A DNA stretch of 47,486 nt, taken from the UHGV virus genome UHGV-0176840. One strand, 5' to 3'. The position numbers and the translations under genes are program-made. Of the stretch, positions 40,411-42,247 are shown piece by piece (position 1 is the first letter of the stretch; each line of letters begins with the position of its first letter). Source of the stretch: a virus. A model generated the notes under the pieces. It was not told where the DNA came from. It did not search any database and saw nothing but the letters and a program-made list of their open reading frames with translations.

Positions 40411-40415
40411 AACAA

Positions 40416-40436
40416 AGCCCCTTTCGGGGCTTTTTC
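40416..40436 (+). terminator. bidirectional terminator after the Imm moron / major tail gene
   Basis: GCCCCtttcGGGGC + TTTTTCTTT. Confidence 0.6.
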
Positions 40437-40440
40437 TTTA

Positions 40441-41157
40441 TCAGGATACAGTGCAAGCTGTGCTGATAATAATTTCCGGGTCAGTAGATGAGTCAGTCAC
40501 CGTTACGGTATACACACCAGCGGTTGGACTTGCCAGAGACGCGCCAGATTCACCACTAACTACCGCGCCATCTTTGCGCCACACGTAGGTGTAAGGAGCA
40601 ACACCACCTTCAACGGCAACAGTTAACGGGCTGCCAGCAGTGCCAGTTGATTGCAGGTCTGTAGTGAATGCCAGAGGTTCAAGGCTTTCTACGGTAACAC
40701 TGTCAGAATCGTAAACCTTAAACTCAAGGCTGCCGGTTACGATGTCGTTCGTGCCACCTTCGTAGCTGATGCTGGTGATGTTGCAATAGGCGGTAACGAT
40801 AGTCGCACCAGTCACCTGACGCACCCACAAGGAAGGCTGACGACGAGCTTTCAGTTCAGTGGCGTAAATCTCAACCAGACGATGGAAGCCAAACTCATCG
40901 CTTGGGTCATTCTTGCGGATTTCAACCTCAGCACTGATGGTCATATCAGAGCTGGTAACGAGAGTGGAAACAAAACCGCCAGCGGTATCCGCTTCCGACG
41001 TAGTGGTCTGCGGCGAGTAGTCAACGCCTTTACTGGTGGTTGAGCCTAAATACTTCCAGTCTCCCGCCTCTGGAACTGCGTCGCCGCACCCTTCAGCAAG
41101 GAACAGGCGGGTCATGCGACCGACCAGAACGCCTTTATCATTTGCACAAATAGCCAT
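40441..41157 (-). CDS. major tail protein with C-terminal Ig-like domain
   Basis: Position upstream of the chaperone and tape measure genes; C-terminal ~90 aa Big_2-like (PYTYVWRKDG...GVYTVTVTD). Confidence 0.6.
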   Translation of the reverse strand: MAICANDKGVLVGRMTRLFLAEGCGDAVPEAGDWKYLGSTTSKGVDYSPQTTTSEADTAGGFVSTLVTSSDMTISAEVEIRKNDPSDEFGFHRLVEIYATELKARRQPSLWVRQVTGATIVTAYCNITSISYEGGTNDIVTGSLEFKVYDSDSVTVESLEPLAFTTDLQSTGTAGSPLTVAVEGGVAPYTYVWRKDGAVVSGESGASLASPTAGVYTVTVTDSSTDPEIIISTACTVS

Positions 41158-41208: not shown

Positions 41209-41237
41209 TTGACAGTGATTATTTTGTGGTGTAGATT
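41209..41237 (+). promoter_or_regulatory. promoter (perfect -35) for the ncRNA locus
   Basis: TTGACA 41209-41214, 17-nt spacer ending GTGGTG, TAGATT 41232-41237; small palindromes GTTAGCtgCTAAC (41174-41186) and GTGATtatATCAC (41190-41202) upstream. Confidence 0.5.
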
Positions 41238-41243
41238 AAAGTC

Positions 41244-41879
41244 TACTTAAGATATGAATTGATTTATGCGTGAGTTTTCAACTTTCTGAAAGGAAGGTGG
41301 CCAAAATGAATGAAATCTCAATTTGAAGAAGTAAAAATAATTAGCGGTCGAGAGACGCCGGACGCGTAACCGGCACACAACAGGTAAGAGCATCTCGCCC
41401 ATAAGTTGATGCGAAAGCAATCTAAGAGGTGCTCTTTCCGTTGTGGCCAGCAAGACCCTACAACACGCGCGATAATCTTAACCGTAGCGCATGTTGTGGG
41501 GCTGGGAATGGGTTAACATTCAAGAGTGAGATGGTGCGTCACTCCACAATGCACAACAGGTAAGAGCATTGAGCCGATAATCGTGAAGAGTCGGCGAGCT
41601 TGGTTAGCCAGTGCTCTTATCGTTGTGGTGAAGCTCAATGGCGAGCTAGCAGATAGGCGACAGTGAAAATACTAGTCATGTAGCTGACCGCCGCGCGTAC
41701 TGCAATAGGCAGCGCACCTATGGAAGCAGGTTCGATTCCTGTCGCCACAACACTTAATATCCAGCATTATCGCAATCATATGTAGGGGTATGTATGGGTT
41801 ACGGGGCTGGATATTAAGAAAGCACGCTGGCAATGCTTAAACCAGTAATAAGGCCGCTTAATGCGGCTTTATTTATTTC
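41244..41879 (+). ncRNA. candidate structured non-coding RNA locus (three related hairpins plus tRNA-like 3' module)
   Basis: No RBS-bearing ORF; promoter 41209-41237 and terminator 41852-41879 on the plus strand; hairpins 41376-41446, 41460-41499, 41563-41638 share CACAAC.../...GTTGTGG arms; exact tRNA T-loop GGTTCGATTCC at 41729-41739. Confidence 0.4.
41852..41879 (+). terminator. terminator closing the ncRNA locus
   Basis: GCCGCttaatGCGGC + TTTATTTATTT. Confidence 0.55.
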
Positions 41880-42247
41880 ACAACACGCAACAGCAACTCA
41901 TGCACAGGTCTTTTTTCTTCCGTCAGCATTGGCCTTCCGGGTGGCGCTTGCAACTGGATGTAGTTAACGCATGAATCAATCGGATGTGTCTTGATATATT
42001 CGATAATCTCATTGGCCTTCGCATCAACATCAGCCACGTTATACTGCCCATGTTTGCCAACAACATACAGGGAGAAATAGAAGTCACCGCCGAGTCCATC
42101 CATAACCTGCGTGCCACCATTTGATTGCAGGACAATAAATTGCTCATTACCATCTCCGGTGTCATTCCAGAACTGCAACTGCGAAGTCCAGCCTTCATAC
42201 AACCCGGCATCCTGAAGATATGCGTCAACCAGTTCAAGCATATTCAT
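41873..42247 (-). CDS. tail terminator/head-tail joining protein (putative)
   Basis: Last of four small connector-type genes before the major tail gene. Confidence 0.4.
   Translation of the reverse strand: MNMLELVDAYLQDAGLYEGWTSQLQFWNDTGDGNEQFIVLQSNGGTQVMDGLGGDFYFSLYVVGKHGQYNVADVDAKANEIIEYIKTHPIDSCVNYIQLQAPPGRPMLTEEKRPVHELLLRVVK

Follow-up and report, generated by a model that had tools for sequence, protein, structure and literature searches.

The DNA considered here is the virus genome UHGV-0176840, a stretch of 47,486 nucleotides (nt) that is referred to below, as a whole, as the window; it belongs to a Skatevirus-like siphophage. The unit described here (41209-41878), which is transcribed from the plus strand, is flanked on one side by the major tail gene (minus strand, 40441-41157; PHROG 853) and on the other by a gene of the structural module (minus strand, 41873-42247; PHROG 782). 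It is a real non-coding transcription unit, a chain of exchangeable structured RNA modules, and one of these modules, B2, is, as judged by comparison with its relatives, a member of a widespread but unannotated family of tRNA-shaped RNAs that is not a tRNA gene. An original prediction made from the letters of the window had placed at this locus a promoter-to-terminator non-coding unit with three related hairpins and a tRNA-like 3' part. The module order is leader-A1-B1-A2-B2-C-terminator, without a tRNA, and the features are the following (MFE, minimum free energy; z, comparison of the fold with shuffled sequences).

41209-41237, plus strand: sigma-70-type promoter TTGACA-17-TAGATT, matching 10 of 12 consensus positions.
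41238-41375, plus strand: leader type 1, one of at least three alternative leaders seen in relatives; its fold is not significant (z = -1.1).
41306-41326, plus strand: open reading frame (ORF) of six codons, MNEISI and then a stop, with Shine-Dalgarno-like AAGGAAGG upstream.
41376-41446, plus strand: module A1 (hairpin H1 of the original prediction), MFE -29.5 kcal/mol, z = -5.6.
41440-41550, plus strand: module B1, a cloverleaf-like four-way junction; the single-sequence MFE structure is exactly this fold, z = -3.8.
41552-41628, plus strand: module A2 (hairpin H3), MFE -36.8 kcal/mol, z = -6.7.
41622-41751, plus strand: module B2, the tRNA-like RNA, 148.6 bits with its family model, with covariation.
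41671-41676, plus strand: self-complementary hexamer ACUAGU in the apical loop of B2, located by aligned position; candidate kissing-loop dimerisation site.
41753-41838, plus strand: module C, z = -3.1.
41852-41878, plus strand: intrinsic terminator GGCCGC-UUAAU-GCGGCU followed by UUUAUUUAUUU, MFE -15.8 kcal/mol, z = -4.8.

The two ends of the unit stand as they had been proposed. Promoter-to-terminator units were extracted from 35 related loci, in which the tail protein is 92-99% identical, and the promoter sequence is the same or nearly the same across all of them; the terminator keeps an invariant stem around a variable loop (a pattern scan reported this hairpin for the minus strand only). 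Together with the selection acting on the RNA families described below, these signals support the view that the plus strand carries a complete non-coding transcription unit. Folded against shuffled sequences, the entire plus strand gives z = -8.7, compared with z = -4.5 for the minus strand. G.U pairs are frequent on the plus strand, which is therefore the RNA strand; on these two grounds, the weaker fold and the many G.U pairs of its complement, the minus strand was rejected. Leader type 1 ends in a conserved hairpin, CCGG-ACGCGTAA-CCGG (41358-41373).

The proposed lack of ORFs of more than 36 codons holds for ATG starts but fails when GTG and TTG starts are allowed, in which case ORFs of 68, 53, 46 and 44 amino acids appear. 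No ORF of the locus has the support of a PHROG family, and coding was rejected as an explanation on that account; a 1-nt indel inside B2 in phage Skate likewise speaks for a non-coding RNA. It had also been held that no start codon carries a ribosome-binding site, which the MNEISI ORF contradicts. This ORF is kept in the few relatives that have leader type 1 (L011, L017 and L031; L numbers designate individual loci) and could be a leader peptide or a product of chance.

Conserved arms, CACAACAGGTAAGAGCA and TGCTCTTnnCGTTGTGG, that enclose unrelated interiors had been described for this locus, and they are there. What had been read as three related hairpins is, in its arms, conserved, but the real grammar is one of alternating A and B modules that share one strand. 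H1 (41376-41446) and H2 (41460-41499) lie where they had been placed; H3 does not, its actual position being 41552-41628 rather than 41563-41638, and H2 is not a hairpin in its own right but part of one arm of the four-way junction at 41440-41550. Module A has the stem CACAAC-A-GG-N-AAGAGCAUUG / CAGUGCUCUU-NN-C-GUUGUG, of about 20 base pairs (bp), around a payload of 33-91 nt, and the sampled loci yield 26 unrelated payload families in 143 instances. Across 43 distinct scaffolds 90.4% of the cells are paired and 10 pairs are changed on both sides; the outermost helix shows transitions only, with wobble pairing retained. A1 is built as CACAAC-A-GG-U-AAGAGCAU / GUGCUCUU-U-CC-GUUGUG around a 35-nt payload, CTCGCCCATAAGTTGATGCGAAAGCAATCTAAGAG, whose family recurs in loci L051, L056 and L058; A2 has the same scaffold and a 41-nt payload, TGAGCCGATAATCGTGAAGAGTCGGCGAGCTTGGTTAGCCA, of a family with five variants in other loci. 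A payloads and B interiors assort independently, as when a payload of the type found in HK75 is paired with a different B in L030.

The 3' arms of the A modules (41430-41446 and 41612-41628, plus strand) contain UGCUCUU(U/A), the first 8 nt of the boxA of rrn operons and of lambda, and this boxA-like sequence directly precedes the G/U-rich, boxC-like GUUGUGG. Since the two arms repeat each other in inverted order, a similar sequence would also appear in the antisense transcript of the late operon, at the minus-strand complement of the 5' arms (41385-41392 and 41561-41568). We retain the boxA reading of the arm as a lead only.

The case for B2 rests on an alignment of 34 distinct sequences of about 130 nt. 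RNAalifold finds compensatory changes in 19 of its 35 pairs, and 97.3% of the cells are paired, as against 84.7% in shuffled alignments and 30-48% when the partners are slid; 21 pairs are changed on both sides, and not one of 500 shuffles reaches the observed value on any of five measures. A covariance model built only from members outside Skatevirus recognises the window copy (41618-41755, plus strand, model positions 1-139) with 148.6 bits (E = 4e-38), and at the aligned columns that copy carries the marks of the family: ATA, GCGCGTA, ATAGG-CAGCGCA-CCTAT and ACTAGT. The tRNA-like 3' part of the original prediction thus belongs to a real RNA family that is maintained by selection, and the z values and the compensatory changes found in relatives likewise bear out its more general contention, that the locus holds a structured non-coding RNA family and is more than random sequence.

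The anatomy of this RNA differs from what had been drawn from one sequence. The acceptor stem is of 9 bp, 41622-41630 with 41743-41751, and covaries along its full length. The pairing GGCGACA/TGTCGCC, to which the acceptor stem had been assigned, is present in the sequence and in the single-sequence MFE structure but is not conserved in L003. A D arm, said to be lacking along with the GG of its loop, exists at 41632-41647 (AGCUC-AAUGGC-GAGCU), and the GG in its loop is invariant. At the anticodon position there is a long arm (41649-41703) with the invariant internal-loop bases AUA and GCGCGUA; in the family as a whole this arm runs from a short stem through the invariant internal loop and a helix of 8-10 bp to an apical loop of about 18 nt. 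It is followed by a variable-arm hairpin, AUAGG-CAGCGCA-CCUAU (41705-41721; family loop YAGCGCA), and a T arm, GCAGG-UUCGAUU-CCUGU (41726-41742; family GUUCGAnUC), which includes the T-loop sequence GGTTCGATTCC already pointed out at 41729-41739. The D and T helices are kept in all 34 sequences, and the T stem covaries.

Neither an Rfam family nor a plain tRNA gene, the two things that a search might have turned up to account for the modules, does so. ARAGORN finds no tRNA or tmRNA gene in the window, and a search of the window at Rfam gathering thresholds gives no match; in a local search by E-value the Rfam tRNA model scores 29.0 bits on 41624-41750, which equals the threshold, with a 74-nt insertion in place of the anticodon arm. 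A plain tRNA was rejected on these two negative results, on the 9-bp acceptor stem and on the A at position 8. On the anticodon side a basal stem of 3-4 bp closes a structured, conserved segment of 45-47 nt from which no 7-nt loop can be derived. The window copy has no encoded CCA (the sequence after the stem is ACTT), and other members have CCA or ACCA after the stem, which in those of N leaders (see below) is part of an extension of the helix. A tmRNA was set aside: ARAGORN finds none, and the only match, a partial one in L108 that consists of the T arm and acceptor, scores 20 bits where the gathering score is 47. The bacterial Y RNA YrlA has its 5' and 3' ends in the Ro/Rsr-binding stem, at the anticodon side of its tRNA-like domain. 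B2 has the opposite topology, with its ends in the acceptor stem and its anticodon-side arm closed by a loop, and a Y RNA has no Rfam match here even at E <= 10. Other Rfam families (sroD, STnc430, mir-194, BASRCI337) match at chance level only, and Rfam searches of seven related loci and of L108, L111 and L112 find genuine tRNAs and no other family. The suggestion of a retron-like RNA is unsupported, the neighbours being tail and connector genes (the major tail protein and the PHROG-782 protein; the check for a reverse transcriptase extended to these neighbours only) and the layout not being of the msr/msd kind; in other phages the neighbours of the locus are Q, holin, N or tRNAs.

The apical loop of the long arm has a feature of its own. 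A hexamer in it is self-complementary in 34 of 34 distinct family members, and it remains so by double changes: ACTAGT, TCTAGA, GCTAGC, TCGCGA, ACCGGT and TCTGGA (the last with a G.U pair) all occur, and the outer pair is UA in 16, AU in 15 and GC in 3. Since a 6-nt palindrome cannot fold on itself, a homodimer held by kissing of the two loops is the simplest reading, and the covarying hexamer suggests such a kissing-loop dimer of B2.

In relatives, B modules start with the GUUGUGG that ends an A module, end with CCACAAC, and have at least eight unrelated interiors. B1 has the closing stem GUUGUG/CACAAU and three arms: CCAGC..GCUGG, which holds the former H2 with the conserved loop AUAAUCUUAACCGUAG; GAAUG-GGUUAA-CAUUC; and GAGUGA-GAUGGUGCG-UCACUC. 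Eleven homologues (from Skatevirus, N4-like Gamaleyavirus, a Kuttervirus and a Jedunavirus) allow its fold to be tested by RNAalifold, with the result that 18 of 33 pairs show compensatory changes. Among N4-like phages and in Kuttervirus, B1 occurs in non-coding stretches of about 1.9 kb, which lie beside tRNA genes where these are annotated (fGh-Ecl02, PhAPEC5). In B type 4 the D-like and T-like hairpin loops are complementary (GCUGA/UCAGC) around a hypervariable centre, and the pair covaries in one variant, L022 (GUCGA/UCGAC); in type 4 these loops take the place of the elbow contact of tRNA. Types 2, 4 and 6 match the B2 covariance model with weak scores over their full length, and on that account the B modules look like variations on one tRNA-shaped scaffold.

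The stretches of about 1.9 kb, in which no genes are annotated (L109 1230-3127 in PGN829.1, L110 1166-3074 in fGh-Ecl02, L239 and L240), hold leader type 2, module A, a cloverleaf of the H2 type and further non-canonical tRNA-like RNAs with a terminal CCA, one of which, in L109, is TTCCGGTG...CGCCGGAACCA. By their look they are enlarged forms of the locus in the window.

Module C consists of a 13-bp hairpin, CUUAAUAUCCAGC / GCUGGAUAUUAAG, around an inner hairpin, CAUAUGUA-GGGG-UAUGUAUG, and is completed by a small hairpin, AAGCA..UGCUU. It is the most conserved module in Skatevirus relatives, nearly unchanged, with a compensatory change in L025 (CCATC/GATGG), and the pattern GCACGCTGGCAATGCTTAAACCAG is found in 32 IMG/VR stretches. 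The inner hairpin (about 41776-41797, with CGCAAU upstream) is also common to non-coding regions of Gamaleyavirus, where it has a different outer stem (L109 at about 2765-2790, L239, L240, L251, L252 and other N4-like contigs). A 15-mer of the module hits about 20 unrelated contig families in IMG/VR, apparently by chance; extended similarity is confined to the N4-like contigs.

Among the relatives the flanking genes are 92-99% identical, yet the length of the unit lies anywhere between 406 and more than 880 nt, and its modules have been swapped, as in a mosaic, within a fixed order: promoter, one of at least three leaders, A, B, sometimes further A-B pairs, C, none to three tRNAs, sometimes an HNH gene, and the terminator. 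The tRNAs are genuine, with anticodons CAU, UCU and GCU. A tRNA downstream of C has the anticodon loop CTAATAA (AAT) in L002 (2006-2082, Skate), L003, L007 and L021, and CTCATAA (CAT, of the Ile2/Met type) in other relatives (L016, L019, L005 and others), a polymorphism between near-identical phages.

The families of B1 and B2 are shared with unrelated phages. That of B2 occurs in 92 phage records, including the lambdoid phages HK75 and PhiR5_2, Pantoea phage PdC23 and a P22-like phage, in more than 120 IMG/VR contigs, in four GTDB species representatives, and in 172 of 5426 complete E. coli genomes, in none of which PGAP annotates it; IMG/VR contigs with the exact T-arm string are mostly outside the phage group of the window. 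The original prediction knew of no such locus in T1-like or lambdoid phages. The same modules are found in lambdoid phages, including the position of the lambda N-leader hairpin, as well as in N4-like and Kuttervirus phages. Public labels are inconsistent: a 58-nt 'tRNA-Ser' in PQ186186 (L001 1828-1885), 'polyubiquitin-A' in ON470594 (21090-21223) and, in Skate (L002 1472-1986), three minus-strand hypothetical proteins annotated over the RNAs. Literature searches, made on the topic as well as with exact sequence strings, brought up no account of these RNAs. One published catalogue comprises 10,006 candidate viral RNAs without names (PMC10690425), and it may contain the modules.

Lambdoid genomes carry B2 in two contexts. 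One is the late leader, between Q/tR' and the holin gene, where it comes after a module A or an HNH gene. The other is the N leader, between nutL, with recognisable boxA and boxB, and the start codon of N; there CUUUGG/CCAAAG lengthens the acceptor stem. In lambda the corresponding position is occupied by this base stem too, GGCTTTGGGGTGTGTG...CACACACCACCAAAGC, with an unrelated interior, so that the tRNA-like RNA and the lambda hairpin are alternative interiors of one conserved stem, and the Skatevirus B modules are related to one another in the same manner. In the lambda N leader this stem is the site of RNase III, and its upstream arm is known as boxC. In both contexts a small upstream hairpin or a module A competes for the upstream arm, and this X-X'-X layout is conserved with sequences that differ.

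Genes of HNH or GIY-YIG endonucleases recur beside or inside the RNA loci of unrelated phages: inside the unit in L026 and L031, and at L112 2090-2590, L111 from 2953 onwards, L126 7614-8099 and L238 4510-4995. Homing-endonuclease genes could explain the spread and mosaicism of the modules. Leader type 2, which heads many Skatevirus, N4-like and Kuttervirus units, also separates (at a length of about 190 nt) the two A modules of L237 and L190, late leaders of prophages of the E. coli 55989 type, which makes the leader itself a mobile module. Outside the unit, directly downstream of the major tail gene, the window has a perfect bidirectional terminator-like hairpin, AAAGCCCC-TTTC-GGGGCTTT (40414-40433); the small plus-strand genes upstream of it include a homologue of the superinfection-immunity (Imm) gene of Skate.

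What might such a chain of RNAs do? The reading that we prefer, and that in our estimate falls just short of being probable, is that it makes processed, scaffold-stabilised small RNAs that act in trans, with B2 as a dimer mimicking tRNA and with the payloads as interchangeable RNAs that serve for binding or as decoys. The locus would be an early operon, driven by the host RNA polymerase, that makes a chain of structured RNAs and no protein. The primary transcript would be cut by host RNases: by RNase III in the long A stems and in the long-range B stems, as in the lambda N leader, and by RNase P and 3' trimming enzymes at the tRNA-like module. The scaffolds would stabilise the released pieces, and these would act in trans. 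B2 would be an L-shaped mimic of tRNA that lacks an anticodon; the palindromic loop would join it to a second copy, and it would bind or titrate either a host factor recognising the tRNA elbow and acceptor end or a defence factor directed at tRNA. The variable payloads of A, and of the other B types, would likewise serve for binding or as decoys, and phages would trade them as cassettes, with the conserved junction sequences as the points of exchange. Processing is suggested by the extended stem of the N-leader members, which has the sequence of the base of the lambda N-leader hairpin, and by the genuine tRNAs in the transcripts of relatives; tRNA mimicry, by the GG of the D loop, the T loop GUUCGAnUC, the weak full-length scores of other B types and the covarying D-like and T-like loops of type 4.

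Several considerations weigh against action in trans. Processing, stabilisation, dimerisation and action in trans, which is to say every step past the fold, are what we infer. A free tRNA-like 3' end appears doubtful, the window copy having no CCA and the ACCA of the N-leader members lying within the helix extension. One set of nucleotides serves both as 3' arm of A and as 5' strand of the closing helix of B, which makes the A and B helices mutually exclusive; the thermodynamic ensemble of the window transcript favours the A helices and leaves the downstream CCACAAY copies mostly unpaired, so that an ordered pathway of processing would be needed. The placement of lambdoid members in mRNA leaders fits a role in cis at least as well. 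The hypervariable interiors could signify relaxed constraint, a point countered by the conservation of each payload family across phages. The seszw study, whose genome-reduction mutants we had considered and rejected as evidence for essentiality, targeted annotated genes only and left the locus untargeted, so that retention of the locus there is uninformative and carries no weight.

The alternative that has to be taken most seriously, possible although on balance doubtful, is that the structure itself is the function and that the modules are cis-acting cassettes for folding, processing or antitermination, like an rrn leader or the lambda leader from nutL to N. The 3' arm of A has a boxA-like sequence (UGCUCUUU or UGCUCUUA) just upstream of the boxC-like GUUGUGG, which would be the upstream strand of a long-range stem; that strand would be kept at the polymerase by Nus factors until CCACAAC appears, whereupon RNase III or RNase P would cut, much as Nus factors keep boxA at the polymerase until the downstream arm emerges in the rrn model (PMC4807359). 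The interiors would then be minor cargo in a long untranslated transcript that is shielded from Rho and punctuated so as to release tRNAs, N or late mRNA. Such a role agrees with the position of lambdoid B2 just after the boxA and boxB of nutL, or in late leaders after a module A with its boxA-like sequence, with the identical base stem and different interior of the lambda N leader, with the real tRNAs downstream in most relatives, and with the alternative upstream hairpin, whose X-X'-X arrangement is conserved in both contexts with different sequences. The N-leader relatives have their long-range stem after boxA and boxB and before the next gene; the window has no nut site, and its UGCUCUUW is boxA-like only and base-paired. 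Against a role in cis, the window has neither a tRNA nor an ORF downstream to release, the boxA-like strand undergoes compensatory changes to TGCCCTT, TACTCTT and TACTCTC, which a NusB/NusE site should not tolerate, and TGCTCTTW has 10 occurrences in the window, where 4.25 would be expected. Punctuation also leaves unexplained the invariant bases in the internal loop and variable-arm loop of B2, its covarying palindrome, and the conservation of payload families across unrelated phages.

The remaining proposals take the repeats, the tRNA likeness or the junctions at face value. CACAACA is the consensus of the targets of the R1 region of the small RNA GcvB, and AgvB is a phage-borne sponge for it (PMC4104026), so that the repeated motif might be a seed target by which the transcript mimics such sites and titrates GcvB. 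Four copies on the plus strand between 41376 and 41885 (at 41376, 41552, 41746 and 41879), against about nine expected on both strands of the 47-kb window, an ensemble probability of being unpaired of 0.76 at 41545 and 0.62 at 41746, and an excess of CACAAC copies over GUUGUG partners, which must leave some copies single-stranded, speak for this. The motif is, however, the structural partner of GUUGUG and covaries to CACACC, CACATC or CACTCA in other members, the N-leader members repeat CCAAAG instead, no adjacent terminator module of the Hfq type is evident, and the R1 duplex (-30.8, against -24.9 +/- 2.6 for shuffled sequences, 5 of 200 of which are as good) is marginal. With the motif a helix strand and the pairing energy marginal, a GcvB sponge is improbable. 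We give scarcely any credence to B2 as a decayed tRNA gene, or one interrupted by an intron or insertion, with the hairpins as debris of rearranged tRNA clusters: scores of 29.0 to 37.4 bits with the Rfam tRNA model, the 58-nt tRNA-Ser annotated over part of it in PQ186186 and the real tRNAs at the locus in relatives are what one would expect of a relic, but pseudogenes do not keep compensatory changes, and more than 60 distinct sequences from unrelated phages conserve the 45-47-nt segment that replaces the anticodon loop, its helices covarying and its loops invariant. Removing the insert yields no 7-nt anticodon loop, the acceptor has 9 bp and position 8 is A; an intron was rejected for want of a bulge-helix-bulge motif and of a group I core (no Rfam match). 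Very improbable, too, is an element acting as DNA (a recombination or attachment site, an origin, a packaging signal) or a set of small proteins encoded by minus-strand ORFs, as in Skate. Conserved junctions of 7-9 nt (CACAAC/GTTGTGG) do bound the exchanged cassettes, endonuclease genes of the HNH or GIY-YIG type are often nearby, and Skate has its three annotated hypothetical proteins; against this, covariation that includes G.U pairs is strand-specific and acts on RNA, a promoter and a terminator bracket the unit, and the ORFs belong to no family and are not conserved across mosaic relatives. The junction repeats may guide recombination, which accounts for spread and not for activity.

If the RNAs do act in trans, phages would possess an extensive set of RNA effectors that annotation has missed, a counterpart of the anti-defence islands that encode proteins, and would make natural use of two design principles, the tRNA scaffold and paired termini, at which RNA engineering arrived only later. 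The strongest form of that proposal, a natural RNA display system shared by unrelated enterobacterial phage families, in which two processing-competent scaffolds present hypervariable payloads that are swapped as cassettes at conserved junction helices, as an arsenal for counter-defence or host takeover that includes an anticodon-less tRNA mimic made a homodimer by its kissing loop, strikes us as rather unlikely. If the modules act in cis, the lambda N-leader hairpin and the rrn boxA/boxC stem are linked to a family of interchangeable modules, and many lambdoid phages carry a tRNA-like RNA in place of the RNase III hairpin, which bears on how expression of N and of the late genes is tuned. Either way, the tRNA-like family by itself reaches about 3% of complete E. 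coli genomes, and many prophages, where it has either no annotation or an incorrect one, and the system is tractable: the BASEL collection holds Skatevirus isolates that infect K-12 (Bas77-81), and HK75 is a K-12 phage.

Among the closest of the systems already described is the lambda N leader. The N-leader members of the B2 family sit at exactly the place of its hairpin, with the base stem GCTTTGGGGTGTGGTG...CACCACACCACCAAAGC where lambda has GGCTTTGGGGTGTGTG...CACACACCACCAAAGC, and share with it the small competing hairpin upstream; the lambda interior is unrelated and not tRNA-like, and the window has its module in an operon devoted to non-coding RNA, which lacks both a nut site and a gene downstream. 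The lambda stem is reportedly processed by RNase III (work attributed to Steege in 1987, Kameyama in 1991 and Wilson in 2002). With rrn-type leaders the locus has in common an untranslated operon, a boxA-like sequence beside a G/U-rich upstream arm, a long-range stem around a structured RNA and, in relatives, tRNAs in the transcript. It differs in that the boxA-like sequence of the window is paired and not strictly conserved, that the enclosed RNAs are of 100-130 nt and interchangeable, and that dependence on Nus factors is putative. The tRNA operon of phage T4 encodes the stable RNAs species 1 and 2 (rnaC and rnaD), which are matured by the tRNA-processing machinery and are likewise small, stable, non-tRNA RNAs in a phage tRNA transcription unit; we know of no modular scaffold-and-payload system, and of no palindromic loop, in T4.

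Farther afield, the TMERs of murine gammaherpesvirus 68 are viral tRNA-like elements that are not aminoacylated and that are fused to pre-miRNA hairpins, whose processing they direct. A tRNA-like fold joined to hairpins with variable functional RNA is the likeness, and it is an analogy only, the biology of TMERs being eukaryotic (polymerase III and tRNase Z) and their hairpins lying downstream of the tRNA-like part. Ponchon and Dardel, in 2007, are said to have engineered tRNA scaffolds in which the anticodon arm is replaced by an arbitrary RNA, which is thereby processed and stable in E. coli. Paired-termini RNAs (PMC1635301) display an arbitrary RNA at the tip of a long terminal stem to the same end. 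These constructs have the architecture of the B (types 1, 4 and 6) and A modules; they are artificial, whereas the phage arrangement is natural, diverse and horizontally exchanged. Self-association by kissing loops is familiar from the dimerisation initiation site (DIS) of HIV-1. It is described also for the pRNA of the phi29 family (PMC4201828). As in these two, the complementarity of a 6-nt loop sequence is kept by covariation; dimerisation of B2 is putative, its loop is of about 18-20 nt, and the remainder of the RNA is tRNA-shaped. AgvB shares with the window the CACAACA of a phage-borne RNA, and in lambdoid prophages the moron site downstream of PR' holds genes of its type, but it is an Hfq-binding small RNA of 51-60 nt with a terminator of its own, and the CACAACA of the window is mainly a helix strand. 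The Pas RNAs of prophages of enteropathogenic E. coli (EPEC), also considered, are a different kind of RNA (small RNAs of the Hfq type with terminators). Phage tRNA-like and stable RNAs, and leader processing stems, are thus kinds already known; the scaffold-and-payload grammar, its spread across unrelated phage families, the tRNA-like RNA that replaces the lambda N-leader hairpin and the covarying palindromic loop appear to be new.

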